DNA of 60,000 bases from Laetmonice hystrix (lineage: Eukaryota), in the NCBI GenBank assembly GCA_965235115.1, contig OZ249436.1, forward strand, positions 12,960,001-13,020,000, read 5' to 3'. A program made the translations under genes and the position numbers. How positions within the stretch are numbered: the stretch's first letter is position 1; each line of letters begins with the position of its first letter. Under the pieces are notes generated by a model. The model made no database searches. It saw nothing but the letters and a program-made list of their open reading frames with translations, and was not told where the DNA came from. Of the stretch, positions 1 to 57,995 are shown one piece after another.

Positions 1-195
1 AAGACAGGTTTATGCAATGATAAGCGAAAAATGGCTTCATTTTTGATACGTCAAATTGAAATTTGCCCCCAAAATTATGATTGTTAGGCCAGATGTATAA
101 CTGTCAACCGTATAGGTCTCGTACGTTCGCTTTAGATAAATGGTTGTGATATGTCTACTTCCCATTTGAGTATCTTCTCCAAATTTTAACATTAG

Positions 196-3100
196 ATGCC
201 CCTCGCCTATACCTTTCATTTCCACTACCTCACTGAACTGTTTGCATGGGTAGTAGGCCAGCCTATCAGATGTAGGGACTTCTCAGTATACTGTTTGGCC
301 TCTCATAGTGCTTGTCCTCACAGTATACGGTTTGGCCTCACTGTACTGTTCGGCCTCACTGTAGTGTTTGCTTGGGTACTAGGCAATGCAGTACCTTGTA
401 GGGATTCGTCACTGTACTGTTTGGCCTCCCTGTACTCTTGGGCCTCACTGTACTGTTTGCTTCTATACAACTGTCGCCAGTAATATAGGGACGCCTCATG
501 TTGCATGTTTCCATGCCTTTATTGTCCAAGAGGCAGGCCATCCGTTTCGTCCATCATTTACTCCCATGTAATCTGTGTCCCCTACTGACCACCTGTAAGC
601 GTCCGACAACGTTGTATGGTAGACCCAGTGGATGTTTGCCGTAAAGACTTAATTAACAAAGGCAAATGACGTTGTTCGCCTTTCTATATCAGATATCCCA
701 TCCCAAGTAGAAACAGATGGCAGAGATGTTGCAAGCAAACACCATGGTGCGGTACTGAAGGGTCCGACTGCACTGCCACCTTCCGGCTACCGATGTAATC
801 ACCACCTTAGACCTGGCTGGGCTGGCAGGCACGTATGGCGCTTAGGGGAGAGACAGGTTTATGCAATGATAAGCGAAAAATGGCTTCATTTTTGATACGT
901 CAAATTGAAATTACGGCCCAAAATTATGATTGTTAGGCCAGATGTATAACTGTCAACCGTATAGATCTCGTACGTTCGCTATATGATATGTCTACTTCCC
1001 ATTTGAGTATCTTCTCCAAATTTTAGCATTAGATACCCTCGCCTATACCTTTCTTTTCCACTACCTCACTGAACTGTTTGCATGGGTAGTAGGCCAGCCT
1101 ATCAGATGTAGGAACCTCTCAGTGTACTGTTTGGCCTCTCATAGTGCTTGTCCTCACAGCATACGGTTTGGCCTCACTGTACTGTTCGGCCTCACTGTAG
1201 TGTCTGCTGGGGTATTAGGCAAGGCAGTACCTTGTAGGGATTCGTCACTGTACTGTTTGGCCTCCCTGTACCCTTAAGCCTCACTGTACTGTTTGCTTCT
1301 ACAACTGTCGCCAGTAATATAGGGACGCCTCAGTCATGTTTCATGTTTCCATGCCTTTATTGTCCAAGAGGCAGGCCATCCGTTTCGTCCATCATTTACT
1401 CCCATGTAATCTGTGTCCCCTACTGACCACCTGTAAGCGTCCGACAACGTTGTATGATAGACCCAGTGGATGTTTGCCGTAAAGACTTAATTAACAATGA
1501 CAAATGACGTTGTTCCCCTTTCTATATCAGATATCCCATCCCCAAGTAGAAACGAATGACAGAGATGTTGCAAGCAAACACCAGGGTGCGGTACTGAAGG
1601 GTCCGACTGCACTGCCACCTTCCGGCTACCGATGTAATCACCACCTTAGACCTGGCCGGGCTGGCAGGCACGTATGGCGCCTTGGGGAGAGACAGGTTTA
1701 TGCAATGATAAGCGAAAAATGGCTTCATTTTTGATACGTCAAATTGAAATTACGCCCCCAAAATTATGATTGTTAGGCCAGATGTATAACTGTCACTCTT
1801 ATAGGTCTCGTACGTTCGCTATAGATAAATGGTTGTGATATGTCTACTTCCAATTTGAGTATCTTCTCCAAATTTTAACATTAGATGCCCCTCGCCTATA
1901 CCTTTCACTTCCACTACCTCACTGAACTGTTTGCATCGGTAGTAGGCCAGCCGATAGGATGTAGGGACGTCCCAGTGTACTGTTTGGCCTCTCATAGTGC
2001 TTGTCCTCACAGTATACGGTTTGGCCTCACTGTACTGTTCGGCCTCACTGTAGTGTTTGCTTGGGTATTAGGCAAGGTAGTACCACCTTGTAGGGATTCG
2101 TCACTGTACTGTTTGGCCTCCCTGTACTCTTTGGCCTCACTGTACTGTTTGCTTCTATACAACTGTCGCCAGTAATATATGGACGCCTCATGTTTCATGT
2201 TTCCATGCCTTTATTGTCCAAGAGGCAGGCCATCCGTTTCGTCCATCATTTAGGCCTACTCCCATGTAATGTGTGTCCCCTACTGACCACCTGTAAGCGT
2301 CCGACAACGTTGTATGGTAGACCCAGTGGATGTTTGCCGTAAAGACCTAATTATCAAAGGCAAATGACGTTGTTCCCCTTTCTATATCAGATATCCCATC
2401 CCAAGTAGAAACAGATGGCAGAGATGTTGCAGGCAAACACCAGGGTGCGGTACTGAAGGGTCCGACTGCACTGCCACCTTCCGGCTAACGATGTAATCAC
2501 CACCTTAGACCTGGCCGGGCTGGCAGGCACGTATGGCGCTTAAGGGAGAGACAGGTTTATGCAATGATAAGCGAAAAATGGCTTTATTTTTGATACGTCA
2601 AATTGAAATTACCCCCTGCAAAAATTATGATTGTTAGGCCAGATGTATAACTGTCACCCGTATAGGTCTCGTACGTTCGCTAGAGATAAATGGTTGTGAT
2701 ATGTCTACTTCCCATTTGAGTATCTTCTCCAAATTTTAACATTAGATGCGCCTCGCCTATACCTTTCATTTCTACTACCTCACTGAATTGTTTGCATGGG
2801 TAGTAGGCCAGCCGATCAGATGTAGGGACTTCTCAGTGTACTGTTTGGCCTCTCATAGTGCTTGTCCTCACAGTATACGGTTTGGCCTCACTGTACTGTT
2901 CGGCCTCACTGTAGTGTTTGCTTGGGTATTAGGCAAGGCAGTACCTTGTAGGGATTCGTCACTGTACTGTTTGGCCTCCCTGTACTCTTTGGCCTCACTG
3001 TACTGTTTGCTTCTACAACTGTCGCCAGTAATATAGGGACGCCTCATGTTTCATGTTTCCATGCCTTTATTGTCCAAGAGGCAGGCCATCCGTTTCGTCC

Positions 3101-3598
3101 ATCATTTAGGCCTACTCCCATGTAATGTGTGTCCCCTACTGACCACCTGTAAGCGTCCGACAACGTTGTATGGTAGACCCAGTGGATGTTTGCCGTAAAG
3201 ACCTAATTAACAAAGGCAAATGACGTTGTTCGCCTTTCTATATCAGATATCCCATCCCAAGTAGAAACGGATGACAGAGATGTTGCAAGCAAACACCAGG
3301 GTGCGGTACTAAAGGGTCCGACTGCACTGCCACCTTCCGACTACCGATGTAATCACCACCTTAGACCTGGCCGGGCTGGCAGGCACGTATGGCGCTTAGG
3401 GGAAAGACAGGTTTATGCAATGATAAGCGAAAAATGGCTTCATTTTTGATACGTCAAATTGAAATTTGCCCCCAAAATTATGATTGTTAGGCCAGATGTA
3501 TAACTGTCAACCGTATAGGTCTCGTACGTTCGCTTTAGATAAATGGTTGTGATATGTCTACTTCCCATTTGAGTATCTTCTCCAAATTTTAACATTAG
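196..3598. repeat. One representative 4-monomer HOR unit, A(837)-B(852)-C(861)-D(853) = 3,403 bp (usually 3,402 bp later)
   Basis: Type-specific markers recur every ~3,402 bp (196/3599/7001; 1885/5287/8689; 2746/6148/9550). They include a 12-bp deletion just before the B anchor, a 4-bp insertion in B (CCTCAGTCATG), a 3-bp insertion in C (GTACCACCTT), ATGCGC in D, and a 6-bp GGCCTA insertion in C and D. Confidence 0.97.
228..497. repeat. Internal degenerate 18-bp subrepeat cluster (consensus GGCCTCACTGTACTGTTT), present in every monomer; first copy shown
   Basis: Adjacent 18-bp copies lie at 334-351, 352-369, 423-440 and 441-458. Further degenerate copies lie at about 228-245, 282-333 and 408-422. 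Confidence 0.93.
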
Positions 3599-9500: not shown

Positions 9501-12500
9501 TGATATGTCTACTTCCCATTTGAGTATCTTCTCCAAATTTTAACATTAGATGCGCCTCGCCTATACCTTTCATTTCTACTACCACACTGAATTGTTTGCA
9601 TGGGTAGTAGGCCAGCCGATCAGATGTAGGGACTTCTCAGTGTACTGTTTGGCCTCTCATAGTGCTTGTCCTCACAGTATACGGTTTGGCCTCACTGTAC
9701 TGTTCGGCCTCACTGTAGTGTTTGCTTGGGTATTAGGCAAGGCAGTACCTTGTAGGGATTCGTCACTGTACTGTTTGGCCTCCCTGTACTCTTTGGCCTC
9801 ACTGTACTGTTTGCTTCTACAACTGTCGCCAGTAATATAGGGACGCCTCATGTTTCATGTTTCCATGCCTTTATTGTCCAAGAGGCAGGCCATCCGTTTC
9901 GTCCATCATTTAGGCCTACTCCCATGTAATGTGTGTCCCCTACTGACCACCTGTAAGCGTCCGACAACGTTGTATGGTAGACCCAGTGGATGTTTGCCGT
10001 AAAGACCTAATTAACAAAGGCAAATGACGTTGTTCGCCTTTCTATATCAGATATCCCATCCCAAGTAGAAACGGATGACAGAGATGTTGCAAGCAAACAC
10101 CAGGGTGCGGTACTAAAGGGTCCGACTGCACTGCCACCTTCCGACTACCGATGTAATCACCACCTTAGACCTGGCCGGGCTGGCAGGCACGTATGGCGCT
10201 TAGGGGAAAGACAGGTTTATGCAATGATAAGCGAAAAATGGCTTCATTTTTGATACGTCAAATTGAAATTTGCCCCCAAAATTATGATTGTTAGGCCAGA
10301 TGTATAACTGTCAACCGTATAGGTCTCGTACGTTCGCTTTAGATAAATGGTTGTGATATGTCTACTTCCCATTTGAGTATCTTCTCCAAATTTTAACATT
10401 AGATGCCCCTCGCCTATACCTTTCATTTCCACTACCTCACTGAACTGTTTGCATGGGTAGTAGGCCAGCCTATCAGATGTAGGGACTTCTCAGTATACTG
10501 TTTGGCCTCTCATAGTGCTTGTCCTCACAGTATACGGTTTGGCCTCACTGTACTGTTCGGCCTCACTGTAGTGTTTGCTTGGGTATTAGGCAATGCAGTA
10601 CCTTGTAGGGATTCGTCACTGTACTGTTTGGCCTCCCTGTACTCTTTGGCCTCACTGTACTGTTTGCTTCTATACAACTGTCGCCAGTAATATATGGACG
10701 CCTCATGTTTCATGTTTCCATGCCTTTATTGTCCAAGAGGCAGGCCATCCGTTTCGTCCATCATTTAGGCCTACTCCCATGTAATGTGTGTCCCCTACTG
10801 ACCACCTGTAAGCGTCCGACAACGTTGTATGGTAGACCCAGTGGATGTTTGCCGTAAAGACCTAATTATCAAAGGCAAATGACGTTGTTCCCCTTTCTAT
10901 ATCAGATATCCCATCCCAAGTAGAAACAGATGGCAGAGATGTTGCAGGCAAACACCAGGGTGCGGTACTGAAGGGTCCGACTGCACTGCCACCTTCCGGC
11001 TAACGATGTAATCACCACCTTAGACCTGGCCGGGCTGGCAGGCACGTATGGCGCTTAAGGGAGAGACAGGTTTATGCAATGATAAGCGAAAAATGGCTTT
11101 ATTTTTGATACGTCAAATTGAAATTACCCCCTGCAAAAATTATGATTGTTAGGCCAGATGTATAACTGTCACCCGTATAGGTCTCGTACGTTCGCTAGAG
11201 ATAAATGGTTGTGATATGTCTACTTCCCATTTGAGTATCTTCTCCAAATTTTAACATTAGATGCGCCTCGCCTATACCTTTCATTTCTACTACCTCACTG
11301 AATTGTTTGCATGGGTAGTAGGCCAGCCGATCAGATGTAGGGACTTCTCAGTGTACTGTTTGGCCTCTCATAGTGCTTGTCCTCACAGTATACGGTTTGG
11401 CCTCACTGTACTGTTCGGCCTCACTGTAGTGTTTGCTTGGGTATTAGGCAAGGCAGTACCTTGTAGGGATTCGTCACTGTACTGTTTGGCCTCCCTGTAC
11501 TCTTTGGCCTCACTGTACTGTTTGCTTCTACAACTGTCGCCAGTAATATAGGGACGCCTCATGTTTCATGTTTCCATGCCTTTATTGTCCAAGAGGCAGG
11601 CCATCCGTTTCGTCCATCATTTAGGCCTACTCCCATGTAATGTGTGTCCCCTACTGACCACCTGTAAGCGTCCGACAACGTTGTATGGTAGACCCAGTGG
11701 ATGTTTGCCGTAAAGACCTAATTAACAAAGGCAAATGACGTTGTTCGCCTTTCTATATCAGATATCCCATCCCAAGTAGAAACGGATGACAGAGATGTTG
11801 CAAGCAAACACCAGGGTGCGGTACTAAAGGGTCCGACTGCACTGCCACCTTCCGACTACCGATGTAATCACCACCTTAGACCTGGCCGGGCTGGCAGGCA
11901 CGTATGGCGCTTAGGGGAAAGACAGGTTTATGCAATGATAAGCGAAAAATGGCTTCATTTTTGATACGTCAAATTGAAATTTGCCCCCAAAATTATGATT
12001 GTTAGGCCAGATGTATAACTGTCAACCGTATAGGTCTCGTACGTTCGCTTTAGATAAATGGTTGTGATATGTCTACTTCCCATTTGAGTATCTTCTCCAA
12101 ATTTTAACATTAGATGCCCCTCGCCTATACCTTTCATTTCCACTACCTCACTGAACTGTTTGCATGGGTAGTAGGCCAGCCTATCAGATGTAGGGACTTC
12201 TCAGTATACTGTTTGGCCTCTCATAGTGCTTGTCCTCACAGTATACGGTTTGGCCTCACTGTACTGTTCGGCCTCACTGTAGTGTTTGCTTGGGTACTAG
12301 GCAATGCAGTACCTTGTAGGGATTCGTCACTGTACTGTTTGGCCTCCCTGTACTCTTGGGCCTCACTGTACTGTTTGCTTCTATACAACTGTCGCCAGTA
12401 ATATAGGGACGCCTCATGTTGCATGTTTCCATGCCTTTATTGTCCAAGAGGCAGGCCACCCGTTTCGTCCATCATTTACTCTCATGTAATCTGTGTCCCC

Positions 12501-37700: not shown

Positions 37701-40700
37701 TTTGGCCTCTCATAGTGCTTGTCCTCACAGTATACGGTTTGGCCTCACTGTACTGTTCGGCCTCACTGTAGTGTTTGCTTGGGTATTAGGCAAGGTAGTA
37801 CCACCTTGTAGGGATTCGTCACTGTACTGTTTGGCCTCCCTGTACTCTTGGGCCTCACTGTACTGTTTGCTTCTACAACTGTCGCCAGTAATATAGGGAC
37901 GCCTCATGTTTCATGTTTCCATGCCTTTATTGTCCAAGAGGCAGGCCATCCGTTTCGTCCATCATTTAGGCCTACTCCCATGTAATGTGTGTCCCCTACT
38001 GACCACCTGTAAGCGTCCGACAACGTTGTATGGTAGACCCAGTGGATGTTTGCCGTAAAGACCTAATTAACAAAGGCAAATGACGTTGTTCGCCTTTCTA
38101 TATCAGATATCCCATCCCAAGTAGAAACGGATGACAGAGATGTTGCAAGCAAACACCAGGGTGCGGTACTAAAGGGTCCGACTGCACTGCCACCTTCCGA
38201 CTACCGATGTAATCACCACCTTAGACCTGGCCGGGCTGGCAGGCACGTATGGCGCCTTGGGGAGAGACAGGTTTATGCAATGATAAGCGAAAAATGGCTT
38301 CATTTTTGATACGTCAAATTGAAATTTGCCCCCAAAATTATGATTGTTAGGCCAGATGTATAACTGTCAACCGTATAGGTCTCGTACGTTCGCTTTAGAT
38401 AAATGGTTGTGATATGTCTACTTCCCATTTGAGTATCTTCTCCAAATTTTAACATTAGATGCCCCTCGCCTATACCTTTCATTTCCGCTACCTCACTGAA
38501 CTGTTTGCATGGGTAGTAGGCCAGCCTATCAGATGTAGGGACTTCTCAGTATACTGTTTGGCCTCTCATAGTGCTTGTCCTCACAGTATACGGTTTGGCC
38601 TCACTGTACTGTTCGGCCTCACTGTAGTGTTTCCTTGGGTACTAGGCAAGGCAGTACCTTGTAGGGATTCGTCACTGTACTGTTTGGCCTCCCTGTACTC
38701 TTGGGCCTCACTGTACTGTTTGCTTCTATACAACTGTCGCCAGTAATATAGGGACGCCTCATGTTTCATGTTTCCATGCCTTTATTGTCCAAGAGGCAGG
38801 CCATCCGTTTCGTCCATCATTTACTCCCATGTAATCTGTGTCCCCTACTGACCACCTGTAAGCGTCCGACAACGTTGTATGGTAGACCCAGTGGATGTTT
38901 GCCGTAAAGACTTAATTAACAAAGGCAAATGACGTTGTTCGCCTTTCTATATCAGATATCCCATCCCAAGTAGAAACAGATGGCAGAGATGTTGCAAGCA
39001 AACACCATGGTGCGGTACTGAAGGGTCCGACTGCACTGCCACCTTCCGGCTGCCGATGTAATCACCACCTTAGACCTGGCTGGGCTGGCAGGCACGTATG
39101 GCGCTTAGGGGAGAGACAGGTTTATGCAATGATAAGCGAAAAATGGCTTCATTTTTGATACGTCAAATTGAAATTACGGCCCAAAATTATGATTGTTAGG
39201 CCAGATGTATAACTGTCAACCGTATAGATCTCGTACGTTCGCTATATGATATGTCTACTTCCCATTTGAGTATCTTCTCCAAATTTTAGCATTAGATACC
39301 CTCGCCTATACCTTTCTTTTCCACTACCTCACTGAACTGTTTGCATGGGTAGTAGGCCAGCCTATCAGATGTAGGAACCTCTCAGTGTACTGTTTGGCCT
39401 CTCATAGTGCTTGTCCTCACAGCATACGGTTTGGCCTCACTGTACTGTTCGGCCTCACTGTAGTGTCTGCTGGGGTATTAGGCAAGGCAGTACCTTGTAG
39501 GGATTCGTCACTGTACTGTTTGGCCTCCCTGTACCCTTGAGCCTCACTGTACTGTTTGCTTCTACAACTGTCGCCAGTAATATAGGGACGCCTCAGTCAT
39601 GTTTCATGTTTCCATGCCTTTATTGTCCAAGAGGCAGGCCATCCGTTTCATCCATCATTTACTCCCATGTAATCTGTGTCCCCTACTGACCACCTGTAAG
39701 CGTCCGACAACGTTGTATGGTAGACCCAGTGGATGTTTGCCGTAAAGACTTAATTAACAATGACAAATGACGTTGTTCCCCTTTCTAAATCAGATATCCC
39801 ATCCCCAAGTAGAAACGAATGACAGAGATGTTGCAAGCAAACACCAGGGTGCGGTACTGAAGGGTCCGACTGCACTGCCACCTTCCGGCTACCGATGTAA
39901 TCACCACCTTAGACCTGGCCGGGCTGGCAGGCACGTATGGCGCCTAGGGGAGAGACAGGTTTATGCAATGATAAGCGAAAAATGGCTTCATTTTTGATAC
40001 GTCAAATTGAAATTACGCCCCCAAAATTATGATTGTTAGGCCAGATGTATAACTGTCACTCTTATAGGTCTCGTACGTTCGCTATAGATAAATGGTTGTG
40101 ATATGTCTACTTCCAATTTGAGTATCTTCTCCAAATTTTAACATTAGATGCCCCTCGCCTATACCTTTCACTTCCACTACCTCACTGAACTGTTTGCATC
40201 GGTAGTAGGCCAGCCGATAGGATGTAGGGACGTCCCAGTGTACTGTTTGGCCTCTCATAGTGCTTGTCCTCACAGTATACGGTTTGGCCTCACTGTACTG
40301 TTCGGCCTCACTGTAGTGTTTGCTTGGGTATTAGGCAAGGTAGTACCACCTTGTAGGGATTCGTCACTGTACTGTTTGGCCTCCCTGTACTCTTTGGCCT
40401 CACTGTACTGTTTGCTTCTATACAACTGTCGCCAGTAATATATGGACGCCTCATGTTTCATGTTTCCATGCCTTTATTGTCCAAGAGGCAGGCCATCCGT
40501 TTCGTCCATCATTTAGGCCTACTCCCATGTAATGTGTGTCCCCTACTGACCACCTGTAAGCGTCCGACAACGTTGTATGGTAGACCCAGTGGATGTTTGC
40601 CGTAAAGACCTAATTATCAAAGGCAAATGACGTTGTTCCCCTTTCTATATCAGATATCCCATCCCAAGTAGAAACAGATGGCAGAGATGTTGCAGGCAAA

Positions 40701-43700
40701 CACCAGGGTGCGGTACTGAAGGGTCCGACTGCACTGCCACCTTCCGGCTAACGATGTAATCACCACCTTAGACCTGGCCGGGCTGGCAGGCACGTATGGC
40801 GCTTAAGGGAGAGACAGGTTTATGCAATGATAAGCGAAAAATGGCTTTATTTTTGATACGTCAAATTGAAATTACCCCCTGCAAAATTATGATTGTTAGG
40901 CCAGATGTATAACTGTCACCCGTATAGGTCTCGTACGTTCGCTAGAGATAAATGGTTGTGATATGTCTACTTCCCATTTGAGTATCTTCTCCAAATTTTA
41001 ACATTAGATGCGCCTCGCCTATACCTTTCATTTCTACTACCTCACTGAATTGTTTGCATGGGTAGTAGGCCAGCCGATCAGATGTAGGGACTTCTCAGTG
41101 TACTGTTTGGCCTCTCATAGTGCTTGTCCTCACAGTATACGGTTTGGCCTCACTGTACTGTTCGGCCTCACTGTAGTGTTTGCTTGGGTATTAGGCAAGG
41201 CAGTACCTTGTAGGGATTCGTCACTGTACTGTTTGGCCTCCCTGTACTCTTTGGCCTCACTGTACTGTTTGCTTCTACAACTGTCGCCAGTAATATAGGG
41301 ACGCCTCATGTTTCATGTTTCCATGCCTTTATTGTCCAAGAGGCAGGCCATCCGTTTCGTCCATCATTTAGGCCTACTCCCATGTAATGTGTGTCCCCTA
41401 CTGACCACCTGTAAGCGTCCGACAACGTTGTATGGTAGACCCAGTGGATGTTTGCCGTAAAGACCTAATTAACAAAGGCAAATGACGTTGTTCGCCTTTC
41501 TATATCAGATATCCCATCCCAAGTAGAAACGGATGACAGAGATGTTGCAAGCAAACACCAGGGTGCGGTACTAAAGGGTCCGACTGCACTGCCACCTTCC
41601 GACTACCGATGTAATCACCACCTTAGACCTGGCCGGGCTGGCAGGCACGTATGGCGCTTAGGGGAAAGACAGGTTTATGCAATGATAAGCGAAAAATGGC
41701 TTCATTTTTGATACGTCAAATTGAAATTTGCCCCCAAAATTATGATTGTTAGGCCAGATGTATAACTGTCAACCGTATAGGTCTCGTACGTTCGCTTTAG
41801 ATAAATGGTTGTGATATGTCTACTTCCCATTTGAGTATCTTCTCCAAATTTTAACATTAGATGCCCCTCGCCTATACCTTTCATTTCCACTACCTCACTG
41901 AACTGTTTGCATGGGTAGTAGGCCAGCCTATCAGATGTAGGGACTTCTCAGTATACTGTTTGGCCTCTCATAGTGCTTGTCCTCACAGTATACGGTTTGG
42001 CCTCACTGTACTGTTCGGCCTCACTGTAGTGTTTCCTTGGGTACTAGGCAAGGCAGTACCTTGTAGGGATTCGTCACTGTACTGTTTGGCCTCCCTGTAC
42101 TCTTGGGCCTCACTGTACTGTTTGCTTCTATACAACTGTCGCCAGTAATATAGGGACGCCTCATGTTGCATGTTTCCATGCCTTTATTGTCCAAGAGGCA
42201 GGCCATCCGTTTCGTCCATCATTTACTCCCATGTAATCTGTGTCCCCTACTGACCACCTGTAAGCGTCCGACAACGTTGTATGGTAGACCCAGTGGATGT
42301 TTGCCGTAAAGACTTAATTAACAAAGGCAAATGACGTTGTTCGCCTTTCTATATCAGATATCCCATCCCAAGTAGAAACAGATGGCAGAGATGTTGCAAG
42401 CAAACACCATGGTGCGGTACTGAAGGGTCCGACTGCACTGCCACCTTCCGGCTACCGATGTAATCACCACCTTAGACCTGGCTGGGCTGGCAGGCACGTA
42501 TGGCGCTTAGGGGAGAGACAGGTTTATGCAATGATAAGCGAAAAATGGCTTCATTTTTGATACGTCAAATTGAAATTACGGCCCAAAATTATGATTGTTA
42601 GGCCAGATGTATAACTGTCAACCGTATAGATCTCGTACGTTCGCTATATGATATGTCTACTTCCCATTTGAGTATCTTCTCCAAATTTTAGCATTAGATA
42701 CCCTCGCCTATACCTTTCTTTTCCACTACCTCACTGAACTGTTTGCATGGGTAGTAGGCCAGCCTATCAGATGTAGGAACCTCTCAGTGTACTGTTTGGC
42801 CTCTCATAGTGCTTGTCCTCACAGCATACGGTTTGGCCTCACTGTACTGTTCGGCCTCACTGTAGTGTCTGCTGGGGTATTAGGCAAGGCAGTACCTTGT
42901 AGGGATTCGTCACTGTACTGTTTGGCCTCCCTGTACCCTTGAGCCTCACTGTACTGTTTGCTTCTACAACTGTCGCCAGTAATATAGGGACGCCTCAGTC
43001 ATGTTTCATGTTTCCATGCCTTTATTGTCCAAGAGGCAGGCCATCCGTTTCATCCATCATTTACTCCCATGTAATCTGTGTCCCCTACTGACCACCTGTA
43101 AGCGTCCGACAACGTTGTATGGTAGACCCAGTGGATGTTTGCCGTAAAGACTTAATTAACAATGACAAATGACGTTGTTCCCCTTTCTATATCAGATATC
43201 CCATCCCCAAGTAGAAACGAATGACAGAGATGTTGCAAGCAAACACCAGGGTGCGGTACTGAAGGGTCCGACTGCACTGCCACCTTCCGGCTACCGATGT
43301 AATCACCACCTTAGACCTGGCCGGGCTGGCAGGCACGTATGGCGCCTAGGGGAGAGACAGGTTTATGCAATGATAAGCGAAAAATGGCTTCATTTTTGAT
43401 ACGTCAAATTGAAATTACGCCCCCAAAATTATGATTGTTAGGCCAGATGTATAACTGTCACTGTTATAGGTCTCGTACGTTCGCTATAGATAAATGGTTG
43501 TGATATGTCTACTTCCCATTTGAGTATCTTCTCCAAATTTTAACATTAGATGCCCCTCGGCTATACCTTTCATTTCCACTACCTCACTGAACTGTTTGCA
43601 TCGGTAGTAGGCCAGCCGATAGGATGTAGGGACGTCCCAGTGTACTGTTTGGCCTCTCATAGTGCTTGTCCTCACAGTATACGGTTTGGCCTCACTGTAC

Positions 43701-44398
43701 TGTTCGGCCTCACTGTAGTGTTTGCTTGGGTATTAGGCAAGGTAGTACCACCTTGTAGGGATTCGTCACTGTACTGTTTGGCCTCCCTGTACTCTTGGGC
43801 CTCACTGTACTGTTTGCTTCTACAACTGTCGCCAGTAATATAGGGACGCCTCATGTTTCATGTTTCCATGCCTTTATTGTCCAAGAGGCAGGCCATCCGT
43901 TTCGTCCATCATTTAGGCCTACTCCCATGTAATGTGTGTCCCCTACTGACCACCTGTAAGCGTCCGACAACGTTGTATGGTAGACCCAGTGGATGTTTGC
44001 CGTAAAGACCTAATTAACAAAGGCAAATGACGTTGTTCGCCTTTCTATATCAGATATCCCATCCCAAGTAGAAACGGATGACAGAGATGTTGCAAGCAAA
44101 CACCAGGGTGCGGTACTAAAGGGTCCGACTGCACTGCCACCTTCCGACTACCGATGTAATCACCACCTTAGACCTGGCCGGGCTGGCAGGCACGTATGGC
44201 GCCTTGGGGAGAGACAGGTTTATGCAATGATAAGCGAAAAATGGCTTCATTTTTGATACGTCAAATTGAAATTTGCCCCCAAAATTATGATTGTTAGGCC
44301 AGATGTATAACTGTCAACCGTATAGGTCGCGTACGTTCGCTTTAGATAAATGGTTGTGATATGTCTACTTCCCATTTGAGTATCTTCTCCAAATTTTA
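25702..44398. repeat. 9,348-bp (11-monomer) tandem duplication, two copies of A-B-CD-CD-A-B-C-D-A-B-CD
   Basis: All anchors pair at +9,348 (25710/35058, 27399/36747, 28255/37603, 29111/38459, 30800/40148, 31660/41008, 32513/41861, 34202/43550). Private SNPs are shared at 29704/39052 and 34981/44329. Confidence 0.92.
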
Positions 44399-45545: not shown

Positions 45546-48500
45546 TGTTTCATGTTTCCATGCCTTTATTGTCCAAGAGGCAGGCCATCCGTTTCATCCA
45601 TCATTTACTCCCATGTAATCTGTGTCCCCTACTGACCACCTGTAAGCGTCCGACAACGTTGTATGGTAGACCCAGTGGATGTTTGCCGTAAAGACTTAAT
45701 TAACAATGACAAATGACGTTGTTCCCCTTTCTAAATCAGATATCCCATCCCCAAGTAGAAACGAATGACAGAGATGTTGCAAGCAAACACCAGGGTGCGG
45801 TACTGAAGGGTCCGACTGCACTGCCACCTTCCGGCTACCGATGTAATCACCACCTTAGACCTGGCCGGGCTGGCAGGCACGTATGGCGCCTAGGGGAGAG
45901 ACAGGTTTATGCAATGATAAGCGAAAAATGGCTTCATTTTTGATACGTCAAATTGAAATTACGCCCCCAAAATTATGATTGTTAGGCCAGATGTATAACT
46001 GTCACTCTTATAGGTCTCGTACGTTCGCTATAGATAAATGGTTGTGATATGTCTACTTCCAATTTGAGTATCTTCTCCAAATTTTAACATTAGATGCCCC
46101 TCGCCTATACCTTTCACTTCCACTACCTCACTGAACTGTTTGCATCGGTAGTAGGCCAGCCGATACGATGTAGGGACGTCCCAGTGTACTGTTTGGCCTC
46201 TCATAGTGCTTGTCCTCACAGTATACGGTTTGGCCTCACTGTACTGTTCGGCCTCACTGTAGTGTTTGCTTGGGTATTAGGCAAGGTAGTACCACCTTGT
46301 AGGGATTCGTCACTGTACTGTTTGGCCTCCCTGTACTCTTTGGCCTCACTGTACTGTTTGCTTCTATACAACTGTCGCCAGTAATATATGGACGCCTCAT
46401 GTTTCATGTTTCCATGCCTTTATTGTCCAAGAGGCAGGCCATCCGTTTCGTCCATCATTTAGGCCTACTCCCATGTAATGTGTGTCCCCTACTGACCACC
46501 TGTAAGCGTCCGACAACGTTGTATGGTAGACCCAGTGGATGTTTGCCGTAAAGACCTAATTATCAAAGGCAAATGACGTTGTTCCCCTTTCTATATCAGA
46601 TATCCCATCCCAAGTAGAAACAGATGGCAGAGATGTTGCAGGCAAACACCAGGGTGCGGTACTGAAGGGTCCGACTGCACTGCCACCTTCCGGCTAACGA
46701 TGTAATCACCACCTTAGACCTGGCCGGGCTGGCAGGCACGTATGGCGCTTAAGGGAGAGACAGGTTTATGCAATGATAAGCGAAAAATGGCTTTATTTTT
46801 GATACGTCAAATTGAAATTACCCCCTGCAAAATTATGATTGTTAGGCCAGATGTATAACTGTCACCCGTATAGGTCTCGTACGTTCGCTAGAGATAAATG
46901 GTTGTGATATGTCTACTTCCCATTTGAGTATCTTCTCCAAATTTTAACATTAGATGCGCCTCGCCTATACCTTTCATTTCTACTACCTCACTGAATTGTT
47001 TGCATGGGTAGTAGGCCAGCCGATCAGATGTAGGGACTTCTCAGTGTACTGTTTGGCCTCTCATAGTGCTTGTCCTCACAGTATACGGTTTGGCCTCACT
47101 GTACTGTTCGGCCTCACTGTAGTGTTTGCTTGGGTATTAGGCAAGGCAGTACCTTGTAGGGATTCGTCACTGTACTGTTTGGCCTCCCTGTACTCTTGGG
47201 CCTCACTGTACTGTTTGCTTCTACAACTGTCGCCAGTAATATAGGGACGCCTCATGTTTCATGTTTCCATGCCTTTATTGTCCAAGAGGCAGGCCATCCG
47301 TTTCGTCCATCATTTAGGCCTACTCCCATGTAATGTGTGTCCCCTACTGACCACCTGTAAGCGTCCGACAACGTTGTATGGTAGACCCAGTGGATGTTTG
47401 CCGTAAAGACCTAATTAACAAAGGCAAATGACGTTGTTCGCCTTTCTATATCAGATATCCCATCCCAAGTAGAAACGGATGACAGAGATGTTGCAAGCAA
47501 ACACCAGGGTGCGGTACTAAAGGGTCCGACTGCACTGCCACCTTCCGACTACCGATGTAATCACCACCTTAGACCTGGCCGGGCTGGCAGGCACGTATGG
47601 CGCTTAGGGGAAAGACAGGTTTATGCAATGATAAGCGAAAAATGGCTTCATTTTTGATACGTCAAATTGAAATTTGCCCCCAAAATTATGATTGTTAGGC
47701 CAGATGTATAACTGTCAACCGTATAGGTCTCGTACGTTCGCTTTAGATAAATGGTTGTGATATGTCTACTTCCCATTTGAGTATCTTCTCCAAATTTTAA
47801 CATTAGATGCCCCTCGCCTATACCTTTCATTTCCACTACCTCACTGAACTGTTTGCATGGGTAGTAGGCCAGCCTATCAGATGTAGGGACTTCTCAGTAT
47901 ACTGTTTGGCCTCTCATAGTGCTTGTCCTCACAGTATACGGTTTGGCCTCACTGTACTGTTCGGCCTCACTGTAGTGTTTCCTTGGGTACTAGGCAAGGC
48001 AGTACCTTGTAGGGATTCGTCACTGTACTGTTTGGCCTCCCTGTACTCTTGGGCCTCACTGTACTGTTTGCTTCTATACAACTGTCGCCAGTAATATAGG
48101 GACGCCTCATGTTTCATGTTTCCATGCCTTTATTGTCCAAGAGGCAGGCCATCCGTTTCATCCATCATTTACTCCCATGTAATCTGTGTCCCCTACTGAC
48201 CACCTGTAAGCGTCCGACAACGTTGTATGGTAGACCCAGTGGATGTTTGCCGTAAAGACTTAATTAACAATGACAAATGACGTTGTTCCCCTTTCTAAAT
48301 CAGATATCCCATCCCCAAGTAGAAACGAATGACAGAGATGTTGCAAGCAAACACCAGGGTGCGGTACTGAAGGGTCCGACTGCACTGCCACCTTCCGGCT
48401 ACCGATGTAATCACCACCTTAGACCTGGCCGGGCTGGCAGGCACGTATGGCGCCTAGGGGAGAGACAGGTTTATGCAATGATAAGCGAAAAATGGCTTCA

Positions 48501-50674
48501 TTTTTGATACGTCAAATTGAAATTACGCCCCCAAAATTATGATTGTTAGGCCAGATGTATAACTGTCACTCTTATAGGTCTCGTACGTTCGCTATAGATA
48601 AATGGTTGTGATATGTCTACTTCCAATTTGAGTATCTTCTCCAAATTTTAACATTAGATGCCCCTCGCCTATACCTTTCACTTCCACTACCTCACTGAAC
48701 TGTTTGCATCGGTAGTAGGCCAGCCGATACGATGTAGGGACGTCCCAGTGTACTGTTTGGCCTCTCATAGTGCTTGTCCTCACAGTATACGGTTTGGCCT
48801 CACTGTACTGTTCGGCCTCACTGTAGTGTTTGCTTGGGTATTAGGCAAGGTAGTACCACCTTGTAGGGATTCGTCACTGTACTGTTTGGCCTCCCTGTAC
48901 TCTTTGGCCTCACTGTACTGTTTGCTTCTATACAACTGTCGCCAGTAATATATGGACGCCTCATGTTTCATGTTTCCATGCCTTTATTGTCCAAGAGGCA
49001 GGCCATCCGTTTCGTCCATCATTTAGGCCTACTCCCATGTAATGTGTGTCCCCTACTGACCACCTGTAAGCGTCCGACAACGTTGTATGGTAGACCCAGT
49101 GGATGTTTGCCGTAAAGACCTAATTATCAAAGGCAAATGACGTTGTTCCCCTTTCTATATCAGATATCCCATCCCAAGTAGAAACAGATGGCAGAGATGT
49201 TGCAGGCAAACACCAGGGTGCGGTACTGAAGGGTCCGACTGCACTGCCACCTTCCGGCTAACGATGTAATCACCACCTTAGACCTGGCCGGGCTGGCAGG
49301 CACGTATGGCGCTTAAGGGAGAGACAGGTTTATGCAATGATAAGCGAAAAATGGCTTTATTTTTGATACGTCAAATTGAAATTACCCCCTGCAAAATTAT
49401 GATTGTTAGGCCAGATGTATAACTGTCACCCGTATAGGTCTCGTACGTTCGCTAGAGATAAATGGTTGTGATATGTCTACTTCCCATTTGAGTATCTTCT
49501 CCAAATTTTAACATTAGATGCGCCTCGCCTATACCTTTCATTTCTACTACCTCACTGAATTGTTTGCATGGGTAGTAGGCCAGCCGATCAGATGTAGGGA
49601 CTTCTCAGTGTACTGTTTGGCCTCTCATAGTGCTTGTCCTCACAGTATACGGTTTGGCCTCACTGTACTGTTCGGCCTCACTGTAGTGTTTGCTTGGGTA
49701 CTAGGCAAGGCAGTACCTTGTAGGGATTCGTCACTGTACTGTTTGGCCTCCCTGTACTCTTGGGCCTCACTGTACTGTTTGCTTCTACAACTGTCGCCAG
49801 TAATATAGGGACGCCTCATGTTTCATGTTTCCATGCCTTTATTGTCCAAGAGGCAGGCCATCCGTTTCGTCCATCATTTAGGCCTACTCCCATGTAATGT
49901 GTGTCCCCTACTGACCACCTGTAAGCGTCCGACAACGTTGTATGGTAGACCCAGTGGATGTTTGCCGTAAAGACCTAATTAACAAAGGCAAATGACGTTG
50001 TTCGCCTTTCTATATCAGATATCCCATCCCAAGTAGAAACGGATGACAGAGATGTTGCAAGCAAACACCAGGGTGCGGTACTAAAGGGTCCGACTGCACT
50101 GCCACCTTCCGACTACCGATGTAATCACCACCTTAGACCTGGCCGGGCTGGCAGGCACGTATGGCGCTTAGGGGAAAGACAGGTTTATGCAATGATAAGC
50201 GAAAAATGGCTTCATTTTTGATACGTCAAATTGAAATTTGCCCCCAAAATTATGATTGTTAGGCCAGATGTATAACTGTCAACCGTATAGGTCTCGTACG
50301 TTCGCTTTAGATAAATGGTTGTGATATGTCTACTTCCCATTTGAGTATCTTCTCCAAATTTTAACATTAGATGCCCCTCGCCTATACCTTTCATTTCCAC
50401 TACCTCACTGAACTGTTTGCATGGGTAGTAGGCCAGCCTATCAGATGTAGGGACTTCTCAGTATACTGTTTGGCCTCTCATAGTGCTTGTCCTCACAGTA
50501 TACGGTTTGGCCTCACTGTACTGTTCGGCCTCACTGTAGTGTTTCCTTGGGTACTAGGCAAGGCAGTACCTTGTAGGGATTCGTCACTGTACTGTTTGGC
50601 CTCCCTGTACTCTTGGGCCTCACTGTACTGTTTGCTTCTATACAACTGTCGCCAGTAATATAGGGACGCCTCAT
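45546..50674. repeat. 2,564-bp (3-monomer) tandem duplication, junction at ~48,110-48,150; limits approximate
   Basis: Anchors pair as 46094/48658, 46954/49518 and 47807/50371. The private SNP CGATACGATG occurs only at 46166 and 48730. Confidence 0.88.
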
Positions 50675-51459: not shown

Positions 51460-54400
51460 TGTACTGTTTGCTTCTACAACTGTCGCCAGTAATATAGGGA
51501 CGCCTCAGTCATGTTTCATGTTTCCATGCCTTTATTGTCCAAGAGGCAGGCCATCCGTTTCATCCATCATTTACTCCCATGTAATCTGTGTCCCCTACTG
51601 ACCACCTGTAAGCGTCCGACAACGTTGTATGGTAGACCCAGTGGATGTTTGCCGTAAAGACTTAATTAACAATGACAAATGACGTTGTTCCCCTTTCTAT
51701 ATCAGATATCCCATCCCCAAGTAGAAACGAATGACAGAGATGTTGCAAGCAAACACCAGGGTGCGGTACTGAAGGGTCCGACTGCACTGCCACCTTCCGG
51801 CTACCGATGTAATCACCACCTTAGACCTGGCCGGGCTGGCAGGCACGTATGGCGCCTAGGGGAGAGACAGGTTTATGCAATGATAAGCGAAAAATGGCTT
51901 CATTTTTGATACGTCAAATTGAAATTACGCCCCCAAAATTATGATTGTTAGGCCAGATGTATAACTGTCACTGTTATAGGTCTCGTACGTTCGCTATAGA
52001 TAAATGGTTGTGATATGTCTACTTCCCATTTGAGTATCTTCTCCAAATTTTAACATTAGATGCCCCTCGGCTATACCTTTCATTTCCACTACCTCACTGA
52101 ACTGTTTGCATCGGTAGTAGGCCAGCCGATAGGATGTAGGGACGTCCCAGTGTACTGTTTGGCCTCTCATAGTGCTTGTCCTCACAGTATACGGTTTGGC
52201 CTCACTGTACTGTTCGGCCTCACTGTAGTGTTTGCTTGGGTATTAGGCAAGGTAGTACCACCTTGTAGGGATTCGTCACTGTACTGTTTGGCCTCCCTGT
52301 ACTCTTGGGCCTCACTGTACTGTTTGCTTCTACAACTGTCGCCAGTAATATAGGGACGCCTCATGTTTCATGTTTCCATGCCTTTATTGTCCAAGAGGCA
52401 GGCCATCCGTTTCGTCCATCATTTAGGCCTACTCCCATGTAATGTGTGTCCCCTACTGACCACCTGTAAGCGTCCGACAACGTTGTATGGTAGACCCAGT
52501 GGATGTTTGCCGTAAAGACTTAATTAACAAAGGCAAATGACGTTGTTCGCCTTTCTATATCAGATATCCCATCCCAAGTAGAAACAGATGGCAGAGATGT
52601 TGCAAGCAAACACCATGGTGCGGTACTGAAGGGTCCGACTGCACTGCCACCTTCCGGCTACCGATGTAATCACCACCTTAGACCTGGCTGGGCTGGCAGG
52701 CACGTATGGCGCTTAGGGGAGAGACAGGTTTATGCAATGATAAGCGAAAAATGGCTTCATTTTTGATACGTCAAATTGAAATTACGGCCCAAAATTATGA
52801 TTGTTAGGCCAGATGTATAACTGTCAACCGTATAGATCTCGTACGTTCGCTATATGATATGTCTACTTCCCATTTGAGTATCTTCTCCAAATTTTAGCAT
52901 TAGATACCCTCGCCTATACCTTTCTTTTCCACTACCTCACTGAACTGTTTGCATGGGTAGTAGGCCAGCCTATCAGATGTAGGAACCTCTCAGTGTACTG
53001 TTTGGCCTCTAGTAGTGCTTGTCCTCACAGCATACGGTTTGGCCTCACTGTACTGTTCGGCCTCACTGTAGTGTCTGCTGGGGTATTAGGCAAGGCAGTA
53101 CCTTGTAGGGATTCGTCACTGTACTGTTTGGCCTCCCTGTACCCTTAAGCCTCACTGTACTGTTTGCTTCTACAACTGTCGCCAGTAATATAGGGACGCC
53201 TCAGTCATGTTTCATGTTTCCATGCCTTTATTGTCCAAGAGGCAGGCCATCCGTTTCATCCATCATTTACTCCCATGTAATCTGTGTCCCCTACTGACCA
53301 CCTGTAAGCGTCCGACAACGTTGTATGGTAGACCCAGTGGATGTTTGCCGTAAAGACTTAATTAACAATGACAAATGACGTTGTTCCCCTTTCTATATCA
53401 GATATCCCATCCCCAAGTAGAAACGAATGACAGAGATGTTGCAAGCAAACACCAGGGTGCGGTACTGAAGGGTCCGACTGCACTGCCACCTTCCGGCTAC
53501 CGATGTAATCACCACCTTAGACCTGGCCGGGCTGGCAGGCACGTATGGCGCCTAGGGGAGAGACAGGTTTATGCAATGATAAGCGAAAAATGGCTTCATT
53601 TTTGATACGTCAAATTGAAATTACGCCCCCAAAATTATGATTGTTAGGCCAGATGTATAACTGTCACTGTTATAGGTCTCGTACGTTCGCTATAGATAAA
53701 TGGTTGTGATATGTCTACTTCCCATTTGAGTATCTTCTCCAAATTTTAACATTAGATGCCCCTCGGCTATACCTTTCATTTCCACTACCTCACTGAACTG
53801 TTTGCATCGGTAGTAGGCCAGCCGATAGGATGTAGGGACGTCCCAGTGTACTGTTTGGCCTCTCATAGTGCTTGTCCTCACAGTATACGGTTTGGCCTCA
53901 CTGTACTGTTCGGCCTCACTGTAGTGTTTGCTTGGGTATTAGGCAAGGTAGTACCACCTTGTAGGGATTCGTCACTGTACTGTTTGGCCTCCCTGTACTC
54001 TTGGGCCTCACTGTACTGTTTGCTTCTACAACTGTCGCCAGTAATATAGGGACGCCTCATGTTTCATGTTTCCATGCCTTTATTGTCCAAGAGGCAGGCC
54101 ATCCGTTTCGTCCATCATTTAGGCCTACTCCCATGTAATGTGTGTCCCCTACTGACCACCTGTAAGCGTCCGACAACGTTGTATGGTAGACCCAGTGGAT
54201 GTTTGCCGTAAAGACTTAATTAACAAAGGCAAATGACGTTGTTCGCCTTTCTATATCAGATATCCCATCCCAAGTAGAAACAGATGGCAGAGATGTTGCA
54301 AGCAAACACCATGGTGCGGTACTGAAGGGTCCGACTGCACTGCCACCTTCCGGCTACCGATGTAATCACCACCTTAGACCTGGCTGGGCTGGCAGGCACG

Positions 54401-54950
54401 TATGGCGCTTAGGGGAGAGACAGGTTTATGCAATGATAAGCGAAAAATGGCTTCATTTTTGATACGTCAAATTGAAATTACGGCCCAAAATTATGATTGT
54501 TAGGCCAGATGTATAACTGTCAACCGTATAGATCTCGTACGTTCGCTATATGATATGTCTACTTCCCATTTGAGTATCTTCTCCAAATTTTAGCATTAGA
54601 TACCCTCGCCTATACCTTTCTTTTCCACTACCTCACTGAACTGTTTGCATGGGTAGTAGGCCAGCCTATCAGATGTAGGAACCTCTCAGTGTACTGTTTG
54701 GCCTCTAGTAGTGCTTGTCCTCACAGCATACGGTTTGGCCTCACTGTACTGTTCGGCCTCACTGTAGTGTCTGCTGGGGTATTAGGCAAGGCAGTACCTT
54801 GTAGGGATTCGTCACTGTACTGTTTGGCCTCCCTGTACCCTTAAGCCTCACTGTACTGTTTGCTTCTACAACTGTCGCCAGTAATATAGGGACGCCTCAG
54901 TCATGTTTCATGTTTCCATGCCTTTATTGTCCAAGAGGCAGGCCATCCGT
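51460..54950. repeat. 1,696-bp (2-monomer) tandem duplication near the array end; limits approximate
   Basis: ORF starts fall at 51679/53375/55071 and 52060/53756. The private dinucleotide change CTCTAGTAGTG occurs at 53011 and 54707. Confidence 0.88.
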
Positions 54951-57344
54951 TTCGTCCATCATTTACTCCCATGTAATCTGTGTCCCCTACTGACCACCTG
55001 TAAGCGTCCGACAACGTTGTATGATAGACCCAGTGGATGTTTGCCGTAAAGACTTAATTAACAATGACAAATGACGTTGTTCCCCTTTCTATATCAGATA
55101 TCCCATCCCCAAGTAGAAACGAATGACAGAGATGTTGCAAGCAAACACCAGGGTGCGGTACTGAAGGGTCCGACTGCACTGCCACCTTCCGGCTACCGAT
55201 GTAATCACCACCTTAGACCTGGCCGGGCTGGCAGGCACGTATGGCGCCTTGGGGAGAGACAGGTTTATGCAATGATAAGCGAAAAATGGGTTCATTTTTG
55301 ATACGTCAAATTGAAATTACGCCCCCAAAATTATGATTGTTAGGCCATATGTATAACTGTCACTCTTATAGGTCTCGTACGTTCGCTATAGATAAATGGT
55401 TGTGATATGTCTACTTCCCATTTGAGTATCTTCTCCAAATTTTAACATTAGATGCCCCTCGCCTATACCTTTCATTTCCACTACCTCACTGAACTGTTTG
55501 CATCGGTAGTAGGCCAGCCGATAGGATGTAGGGACGTCCCAGTGTACTGTTTGGCCTCTCATAGTGCTTGTCCTCACAGTATACGGTTTGGCCTCACTGT
55601 ACTGTTCGGCCTCACTGTACTGTTTGCTTGGGTATTAGGCAAGGTAGTACCACCTTGTAGGGATTCGTCACTGTACTGTTTGGCCTCCCTGTACTCTTTG
55701 GCCTCACTGTACTGTTTGCTTCTATACAACTGTCGCCAGTAATATATGGACGCCTCATGTTTCATGTTTCCATGCCTTTATTGTCCAAGAGGCAGGCCAT
55801 CCGTTTCGTCCATCATTTAGGCCTACTCCCATGTAATGTGTGTCCCCTACTGACCACCTGTAAGCGCCCGACAACGTTGTATGGTAGACCCACTGGATGT
55901 TTGCCGTAAAGACCTAATTAACAAAGGCAAATGACGTTGTTCGCCTTTCTATATCAGATATCCCATCCCAAGTAGAAACAGATGGCAGAGATGTTGCAAG
56001 CAAACACCATGGTGCGGTACTGAAGGGTCCGACTGCACTGCCACCTTCCGGCTACCGATGTAATCACCACCTTAGACCTGGCTGGGCTGGCAGGCAAGTG
56101 TGGCGCGTAGGGGAGAGACAGGTTTATGCAATGATAAGCGAAAAATGGCTTCATTTTTGATACGTCAAATTGAAATTACGGCCCAAAATTATGATTGTTA
56201 GGCCAGATGTATAACTGTCAACCGTATAGATCTCGTACGTTCGCTATATGATATGTCTACTTCCCATTTGAGTATCTTCTCCAAATTTTAACATTAGATA
56301 CCCTCGCCTATACCTTTCATTTCTACTACCTCACTGAATTGTTTGCATGGGTAGTAGGCCAGCCTATCAGATGTAGGGACTTCTCAGTGTACTGTTTGGC
56401 CTCTCATAGTGCTTGTCCTTACAGCTTTTTGTTTGGCCTCACTGTACTGTTCGGCCTCACTGTAGTGTTTGCTTGGGTATTAGGCAAGGCAGTACCTTGT
56501 AGGGATTCGTCACTGTACTGTTTGGCCTCCCTGTACTCTTGGGCCTCACTGTACTGTTTGCTTCTACAACTGTCGCCAGTAATATATGGACGCCTCATGT
56601 TTCATGTTTCCATGCCTTTATTGTCCAAGAGGCAGGCCATCCGTTTCGTCCATCATTTAGGCCTACTCCCATGTAATGTGTGTCCCCTACTGACCACCTG
56701 TAAGCGTCCGACAACGTTGTATGGTAGACCCAGTGGATGTTTGCCGTAAAGACTTAATTATCAAAGGCAAATGACGTTGTTCGCCTTTCTATATCAGATA
56801 TCCCATCCCAATTAGAAACAGATGGCAGAGATGTTGCAAGCAAACACCAGGGTGCGGTACTGAAGGGTCCAACTGCACTGCCACCTTCCGGCTACCGATG
56901 TAATCACCACCTAAGACCTGGCCGGGCTGGCAGGCACGTGTGGCGCGTAGGGGAGAGACAGGTTTATGCAATGATAAGCGAAAAATGGCTTCATTTTTGA
57001 TACGTCAAATTGAAATTACGCCCCAAAAATTATGATTGTTAGGCCAGATGTATAACTGTCACCCGTATAGGTCTCGTACGTTCGCTATAGATAAATGGTT
57101 GTGATATGTCTACTTCCCATTTGAGTATCTTCTCCAAATTTTAACATTAGATGCCCCTCGCCTATACCTTTCATGTCCACTACCTCACTGAACTGTTTGC
57201 ATGGGTAGTAGGCCAGTGTATCAGATGTAGGGACTTCTCAGTGTACTGTTTGGCCTCTTATAGTGCTTGTCCTCACAGTATACGGTTTGGCCTCACTGTA
57301 TTGATTGCGAACGCACTTATGTTGAATTTAATACCAGACGGCAG

Positions 57345-57978: not shown

Positions 57979-57995
57979 CTTTGCTGAAAAGAACG

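Follow-up and report, generated by a model that had tools for sequence, protein, structure and literature searches.

An abundant, non-coding ~850-bp satellite with higher-order repeats at an array edge in Laetmonice hystrix

Results

Array and Monomer

We consider it probable (about 0.8) that the window, a 60,000-nucleotide stretch of Laetmonice hystrix DNA (contig OZ249436.1, positions 12,960,001 to 13,020,000), captures the right-hand end of a single array belonging to a major satellite family that is non-coding. The higher-order repeat (HOR) layout and the monomer size are both already known kinds and neither is new; what is new here is high genomic abundance with diverged subfamilies, and the interstitial position of the array. 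The principal features of the repeat unit are

1..57300, + strand: satellite array, open at the left edge of the window and with its true end at 57300
2776..3017, + strand: internal sub-repeat zone, present in every monomer (here in a monomer D, ~229-470), with 18-bp sub-repeats and an old 126-bp (7 x 18) duplication

All 68 matches to a 15-base anchor fall on the + strand and none on the - strand; they delimit 67 full monomers (827-859 bp), arranged head to tail, and a last one of 346 bp that is cut short at 57300. The preliminary description of a satellite with ~850-bp monomers in a single orientation over more than 57 kb is thus borne out, with one monomer repeated on one strand for at least 57.3 kb. 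No transposon insertions interrupt these 57 kb (the largest monomer is 859 bp, and N is absent). Monomer GC is 46%, the observed/expected CpG ratio is 0.60 in the array vs 0.76 in the flank, and a 171-bp period is absent from the top autocorrelation lags. The array is interstitial: its chromosome piece is at least 24 Mb long and continues for 11 Mb or more on both sides, and the array lies near its middle.

Within the sub-repeat zone, periodicity is strong at lags 18 (z 4.7) and 126 (z 8.0), and the two halves of the 126-bp duplication retain 76% identity over 99 bp (E 2e-15). The possibility that the whole monomer is an 18-bp multimer was rejected, the 18-bp period being absent outside positions 229-466. 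The monomer shows no ten-base AT periodicity.

Monomer Types and Higher-Order Repeats

Four monomer types, A-D, differ pairwise by 3.0-5.2% substitutions and 3-8 indels, and their consensus sequences differ at 91 alignment columns. Many of the columns private to one type are fixed in all its members (4/8 in A, 32/37 in B, 17/20 in C, and 10/11 in D), so the claim of four types with fixed differences stands, although "many" differences is a relative term for types that are 95-97% alike by substitutions: alpha-satellite monomers within an HOR are reported to be only 50-70% identical (PMC8125562). The close likeness of the types indicates that the HOR is young. The types are arranged into the following units

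1..3403, + strand: canonical HOR A(849)-B(839)-C(859)-D(856), ~3402 bp, found in 10 copies 0.09-0.68% apart
1, 3404, 6806, 11919, 15321, 18723, 22113, 28916, 38264, and 44211, + strand: starts of the intact ABCD units
10208..11918, + strand: two-monomer variant (A/C hybrid, then D), with a switch at alignment columns 443-447
25515..44210, + strand: an 11-monomer super-repeat of 9348 bp, present twice in tandem and arranged AB-C/D, A/C/D, ABCD, AB-C/D
47612..50175, + strand: three-monomer variant (A/B hybrid, C, D)
51864..55255, + strand: dimer (C/D/A hybrid and B) in two copies (1693 identical positions, 3 mismatches)
55256..57300, + strand: edge of the array, with a C/A hybrid followed by a mosaic monomer that has diverged and by the truncated final monomer

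Across the 45 pairs formed by the ten intact tetramers, divergence averages 0.39% and shows no significant relation to distance (rho 0.25, Mantel p 0.086). The mean distance between monomers at lag 4 is 15.2 differences, as against 30.0 +/- 1.8 in shuffled monomer orders, and since none of 10,000 shuffles is as low, the tetramer periodicity is not due to chance. Under the definition of regimented HORs taken from an atlas of 325 genomes (bioRxiv 10.64898/2026.09.17.752431), which we applied as periodically spaced blocks of four or more monomers with a likeness of at least 96% to their paired blocks, both the tetramers and the 11-mer pair qualify. The near identity of tetramers proposed earlier is therefore confirmed, but its extent over more than 57 kb is not: intact ABCD units hold only 40/67 monomers, the remainder being 2- and 3-mers, hybrid monomers, and the duplicated 11-mer, and in monomers 31-67 no period does better than 11 (15.0, against 20.9 for period 4).

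Hybrid monomers number 12/67 by clustering, and 13/67 show a type switch when painted, with switch points scattered along the monomer (columns 114-120, 204-222, 242-252, 443-447, 448-471, 506-514, 590-666, and 666-673). The dimer at 10208..11918 is a tetramer minus two monomers, deleted in register. The two 11-mer copies align with 9343 identical positions, 5 mismatches, and 0 gaps (99.95%), and the second autocorrelation peak of the array lies at lag 9348. Taken together, hybrid monomers, 2- and 3-mers, and a duplicated 11-mer form a signature of unequal exchange.

Array Edge and Flank

HOR disorder increases toward the array edge, where the mosaic monomer carries 31 differences from its nearest neighbor in the window and the last monomer is truncated within the sub-repeat zone. 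Beyond it lie

57345..57953, no strand assigned: dispersed repeat adjoining the array, with 18-bp inverted arms (57352-57369 / 57936-57953, 94%); MITE-like, unclassified
57995..58147, no strand assigned: second dispersed repeat, in which a 10-nt word occurs four times about a T/G run; unclassified
58245..60000, no strand assigned: unique DNA that served as the reference for single-copy depth (33.4, 57.4, and 44.3 in the three runs)

The first dispersed repeat has a depth ~25-30x that of the unique flank and the second is more abundant still; the monomer resembles neither. The edge is abrupt, with unique DNA within ~0.9 kb of the last monomer and no more than two diverged monomers at the array end, and the broad layer of old monomers or transposons that is wide in human centromeres (PMC9549924) is absent. 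The unique flank sits in a 4.2-kb contig that extends ~2.3 kb past the window.

Genomic Abundance and Subfamilies

We estimated copy number from summed contig depth over one monomer relative to the unique flank, in three runs from one sample. Summed depth is 15,000-165,000x that of the unique flank in 3/3 runs, a ratio that is not itself a copy number. Dividing the highest bin by 31, the largest inflation for 31-letter words, gives a lower bound of 3,585-5,318 copies, and the lowest depth bin gives an upper bound of 15,180-20,501, both under the assumption that flank depth equals two-haplotype depth. These contig-depth bounds from one sample place the family at roughly 3,600-20,000 copies, or about 3-17 Mb; even by the conservative bound of about 3,600 copies or more, this is a high-copy satellite. 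Depth is high over all seven monomer bins, and we do not take differences between bins as conservation because contig fragmentation alone can produce them.

Many contigs are 90-95% identical to the monomer, and more diverged pieces reach only ~80% identity (one has 42 differing letters out of 220 and another, at depth 466, has 32 out of 160). In the sub-repeat zone, contigs also show joints and loose ends absent from the window. These observations point to several diverged subfamilies on other arrays. Confinement to one short locus, which the preliminary description had named as evidence against a centromeric role, is contradicted by both copy number and position.

It is scarcely credible that the higher-order pattern is an assembly artefact. 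No contig bridges the junction at 57300 among the 24 of 63,786 pieces listed, and the best run contains only about half (0.51) of the sampled words of the tetramer, as an artefact might predict; against this, the copies share nested private variants and clean hybrids, and the very high family depth recurs in every run.

Absence of a Conserved Cassette

The array is non-coding and without a conserved cassette, as befits a satellite. The 91 mutation events are evenly spread over ten bins (chi-square p 0.80), the longest invariant stretch is 37 bp (simulated median 43), and types A, B, and C each have fixed indels that shift the reading frame. None of 25 ORFs, out of 64 listed for 55000-60000, matches Pfam at the cut-off, and three weak matches (E 0.15-0.42) fall far under it. 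Rfam yields 0 matches at E<=1 on 52000-60000 and one chance match (E 3.1) on 600-1800, and tRNAs number 0.

Arrays of 5S or snRNA genes have units of similar size. A tandem gene array, in which an unknown small RNA or short protein gene alternates with spacers, would fit this unit size and the few windows that fold at z -1.9 to -2.9, yet we regard it as very improbable: the monomer has no invariant gene region within variable spacers, it lacks Rfam, tRNA, and Pfam matches, its frame-shifting indels are fixed, and folding windows below z -1.8 (6/88) are near chance.

CpG sites are mutated at 6/56 and other C/G sites at 24/342 (p 0.41), with 53 transitions and 61 transversions; with the CpG rate not raised, nothing points to heavy germ-line methylation in the recent past, even though the observed/expected CpG ratio is lower in the array than in the flank. 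Most monomers carry, on the - strand, a 15-mer within one mismatch of the CTCF consensus. We rejected this CTCF-like motif because 42/3,000 shuffles contain one, it was among eight motifs tried, and it is missing from type D and from six hybrids with a D tail. Exact-pattern scans of metagenome contigs (0 and 0) and viral contigs (0) and a blastn search against phages gave no match, these collections being poor tests for an animal repeat.

Discussion

Comparison with Known Satellites

A satellite with HORs and no assigned known family remains an accurate account of this DNA, but the surprise implied earlier at HORs on an ~850-bp monomer is not warranted. Regimented HORs are common across plants and animals in the 325-genome atlas, where 103/263 candidate centromeric families have a monomer length in the 201 bp-5 kb range (bioRxiv 10.64898/2026.09.17.752431); its supra-nucleosomal satellites resemble the present array in this monomer class, in periodic HORs, and in weaker order at the edge. 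Centromeric SatI of goat has an 816-bp monomer with HOR classes (PMC11579321). Architecture and monomer size alone would thus not surprise a specialist. The main text of the atlas contains 0 occurrences of "annelid," "polychaet," or "worm," and none of the papers found in searches for annelid satellites and centromeres, judged by titles and abstract starts, describes such a family.

The array is not alpha satellite. Great-ape alpha satellite shares with it ordered blocks whose copies are about 0.5-2% apart or less, as well as hybrid monomers, structural variants, and edge disorder (PMC8125562, PMC9549924, PMC8336445), but its monomer is 171 bp and AT-rich, in contrast to 827-859 bp and 46% GC here, and its types are far less alike. 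The likeness is in layout only, and no sequence relation is expected. Goat and sheep SatI (816 bp) and SatII (702 bp) are closer in monomer size, megabase abundance, and HOR classes, but these mammalian satellites are far more abundant (118 Mb), have CENP-A signal, and are likened here by description, not sequence (PMC11579321). Satellites of Vicia faba (687-2033 bp) also have long monomers without likeness to known repeats, but are plant, AT-rich, mostly without sub-repeats, and mostly at one locus each (PMC5895790).

Possible Centromeric Role

Whether the satellite marks a (peri)centromere, as the preliminary description proposed, is a guess to which we give even odds; that it carries the kinetochore or is CENP-A-bound is a more doubtful guess. 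HOR structure alone does not indicate centromere function. A functional centromeric satellite would form one large array per chromosome with CENP-A and chromosome-specific HORs as in great apes, and its surroundings would be poor in genes and rich in transposons. This reading is consistent with a megabase-scale family with diverged subfamilies, an interstitial position near the middle of its chromosome piece, homogeneous HORs (0.39%) whose disorder rises edgewards as the atlas reports (bioRxiv 10.64898/2026.09.17.752431), and the description of annelids as monocentric. It nevertheless seems unlikely given the abrupt edge into unique DNA and dyad symmetry whose excess in monomer A (z 2.9) is not shared by D (z 0.8; unique flank z 1.2-1.5). 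The CENP-B box found in some alpha-satellite monomers has no match at one mismatch on either strand of monomer D. Long-monomer satellites, moreover, are often pericentric only: in Vicia faba, only 4/17 are centromeric and CenH3-bound, the others being mostly pericentric (PMC5895790). A genome study of annelids, in which centromeres cluster, likewise reports no dominant satellite coinciding with inferred centromeres in clitellates.

If the array were centromeric in this functional sense, it would represent an annelid kinetochore satellite with ape-like chromosome-specific HORs and super-HORs on ~5x the usual monomer length, in a phylum where our searches turned up no described centromeric satellite, and types only 3-5% apart would mean an HOR caught soon after birth, each exchange point readable.

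An intercalary or sex/B-chromosome block of heterochromatin, unrelated to the centromere, is possible, though short of an even chance; the family would then be confined to one or a few chromosomes, in a small number of very large arrays. The abrupt edge, the lack of transposon insertions in 57 kb, the recent amplification seen in the 11-mer copies, and the precedent of single-locus long-monomer satellites (PMC5895790) all agree with such a block, but the ~80%-identity pieces and the many 90-95% contigs point instead to several old subfamilies.

Annelid centromeric DNA is almost uncharted, and a multi-megabase family provides a ready FISH probe and CENP-A target.

Origin and Recombination

It is improbable that the monomer descends from a non-autonomous transposon (Helentron/HINE, MITE, or SINE) that decayed and was amplified in tandem. 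Satellites derived from transposons are known, and the central tandem sub-repeats in a non-coding unit recall the layout of HINE/DINE-1 non-autonomous Helentrons (PMC4067079). Those elements, however, have 12-15-bp subterminal inverted repeats, a terminal 3' hairpin, and a T-rich junction (PMC4067079), and here no such subterminal pair turned up together with a 3' hairpin and T-rich junction. The longest perfect inverted pair is 11 bp, is reached by 37/100 shuffles, and is absent from types B and C; a tRNA head and an A/B-box pair are also missing, and neither the high depth in all seven bins nor the lack of likeness to the flanking repeats favors a transposon.

We propose instead that the ~850-bp monomer had a single origin, from unique-looking DNA and an 18-bp minisatellite zone that was duplicated as a 126-bp block. 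Monomers would first have drifted 3-5% apart, and one ABCD run would later, and recently, have been block-amplified. A recombination mechanism probably lies behind the array variants: out-of-register unequal exchange and gene conversion would delete or duplicate whole monomers and so produce the hybrids, the dimer and trimer variants, and the 11-mer super-repeat, with a greater effect near the edge. The array would then serve as structural heterochromatic DNA under concerted evolution. The long, low-divergence monomer makes recombination products readable, with eight switch intervals and a 9.3-kb block duplication in this array, and such products suit tests of unequal crossover versus conversion.

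Monomer Types and Higher-Order Structure

Word-distance and autocorrelation analyses of the window yield peaks at ~838–860, 3402, and 9348 bases. Cutting the array at a 15-base anchor (68 starts on the + strand, 0 on the − strand) gives 67 full monomers of 827–859 bp and a 346-bp partial monomer up to 57300, bearing out the single orientation over more than 57 kb noted in the preliminary description. No full monomer is long enough to contain an insertion, the window has 0 N bases, and GC content is 46–47% along the whole array versus 43.6% in the flank. The shortest monomer (monomer 24, window 19572–20398; 827 bp) has a private 12-bp deletion.

Clustering of the 67 monomers separates types A (n = 15), B (n = 17), C (n = 11), and D (n = 12) from 12 others. 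Mean substitutions between types are 3.0–5.2%, plus 3–8 indel events, and within-type divergence is 0.09–0.63%. The 10 intact ABCD tetramers, the canonical higher-order repeat (HOR) of ~3.4 kb, differ pairwise by 0.09–0.68% (45 pairs), and mean monomer distance at lag 4 is 15.2 versus 30.0 ± 1.8 in shuffled orders (as low in 0 of 10,000). The four types and their tetramer periodicity, as first described, are thereby upheld; tetramers do not extend across the entire array as had been claimed, since just 40 of the 67 monomers lie inside intact units.

The best period is 4 in monomers 1–30 (mean distance 8.6) and 11 in monomers 31–67 (15.0, versus 20.9 for period 4). Positions 34863–44210 repeat 25515–34862 with 5 mismatches in 9348 bases, forming a repeat of repeats of 11 monomers each. 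Painting each of the 67 monomers against A–D reveals a type switch in 13.

Hybrid monomers found by painting against the four types (window positions)
10208: A/C hybrid
12768, 47612: A/B hybrids
27203, 34006, 36551, 43354: C/D hybrids
28060, 37408: A/C/D hybrids
51864, 53560: C/D/A hybrids
55256: C/A hybrid
56115: diverged mosaic

Switch points are scattered over the monomer length. Because in-register deletions and hybrid junctions are the expected product of unequal exchange, we infer that this mechanism produced both here, and the short foreign tracts within intact tetramers (monomers 16 and 53) suggest that conversion may have acted too. Human centromeres also contain hybrid monomers (PMC8336445).

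Abundance and Subfamilies

Abundance was estimated from contigs of three runs of one sample, compared over 56460–60000 (one monomer length plus flank). Over the unique flank (58245–60000), summed contig depth is 33.4, 57.4, and 44.3, compared with 0.67–8.0 million over the monomer; the latter does not equal copy number, since overlapping short contigs enter the sum repeatedly. As no base can lie in more than 31 words of length 31, the highest bin divided by 31 sets a floor of 3,585–5,318 copies; the lowest bin gives a ceiling of 15,180–20,501. This would correspond to ~3–17 Mb in the one sample, with the copy estimate halved if flank depth represents one haplotype. No more than about 2% of the family falls within the window. 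Among 26,268 contig records on 56460–60000 in run X1, 12,770 are 90–95% identical and 5,149 are <90% identical. Further subfamilies and length variants are indicated by long contig pieces ~80% identical to the monomer and by joints and loose contig ends, located in the sub-repeat zone, that have no counterpart in the window.

The Array Edge

The array is interstitial on its sequence piece and terminates at 57300, within a zone of 18-bp sub-repeats. The transition out of the array is abrupt, with two diverged monomers followed by two abundant repeats and, from ~58150, by unique DNA that lies in a 4.2-kb contig extending past the window end. No contig bridges the 57300 junction among the pieces listed (24 of 63,786).

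Repeats at the array edge
57345–57953: MITE-like dispersed repeat bearing inverted arms of 18 bp, ~25–30× unique depth
57995–58147: second, short abundant repeat in which a 10-nt word occurs four times around a T8/G17 run; depth sums to 7,000–9,000

Relative to the commonest contig, the MITE-like copy is ~10% divergent, and it includes 112 additional bases, among them a 26-bp hairpin (57846–57905), that deep contigs skip.

Probable Heterochromatic and Possible Centromeric Function

The best reading, to which we assign a probability of about 80%, is that of a major heterochromatic satellite whose copies evolve in concert. A link to the centromere draws on the high abundance, multiple subfamilies, mid-chromosome position, and homogeneous core with a disordered edge; it is weakened by the sharp edge without old layers (contrast PMC9549924), by the lack of a consistent dyad excess, by Vicia faba, where only 4 of 17 long-monomer satellites are centromeric (PMC5895790), and by inferred clitellate centromeres without a dominant satellite (bioRxiv 10.1101/2024.05.16.594344). 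The chances that the family is (peri)centromeric are roughly even, and binding by CENP-A seems rather doubtful.

The organization resembles that of alpha satellite but differs in monomer length and divergence (PMC8125562). Membership in alpha satellite is rejected on these two grounds and on the CENP-B box, which has no match at one mismatch on either strand of monomer D. Long monomers have precedents: the centromeric SatI of goat has an 816-bp monomer (PMC11579321), and a 325-genome centromere atlas (bioRxiv 10.64898/2026.09.17.752431) reports 103 of 263 families with monomers of 201 bp–5 kb and describes regimented HORs as common. We found no published description of the ~850-bp family in the literature partially covered, and Supplementary Table 2 of the atlas may list it.

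Coding, RNA, and Transposon Signals

Rfam gives 0 matches at E ≤ 1 in 52000–60000 and one chance match in 600–1800, no tRNA genes were found, and 0 of 25 ORFs tested reach the Pfam cut-off; frame-shifting indels are fixed in three of the four types. The monomer therefore contains no protected cassette: its 91 mutation events are evenly distributed (p 0.80), and at 37 bp its longest invariant run is under the simulated median of 43. Transposon-derived satellites are known (PMC12692304, a review; PMC11121367). A search for transposon ends found none: the monomer's best inverted pair is 11 bp, is equaled in 37 of 100 shuffles, and is absent from types B and C, whereas HINEs are defined by subterminal repeats of 12–15 bp (PMC4067079).

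Internal Structure of the Monomer

Within the monomer, sub-repeats of 18 bp occupy positions ~229–470 together with a 126-bp duplication whose copies are 76% identical over 99 bp; neither period occurs in the remaining monomer. In types C/D this zone is flanked by an imperfect 18-bp inverted pair (window 2792–2809 / 3109–3125), which could represent old MITE ends, though the match is at chance level (E 0.31). A CTCF-like 15-mer on the − strand (positions ~775–795), present in most monomers and absent from type D, was discarded as weak after multiple testing (one mismatch to the consensus). Joints in the sub-repeat zone (window 56498–56565 and 57190–57264) occur in contigs of depth 1,300–3,300 and mark monomer variants elsewhere carrying more or fewer sub-repeats. 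With one frequent loose contig end, the second 126-bp copy becomes more similar in sequence to the first.
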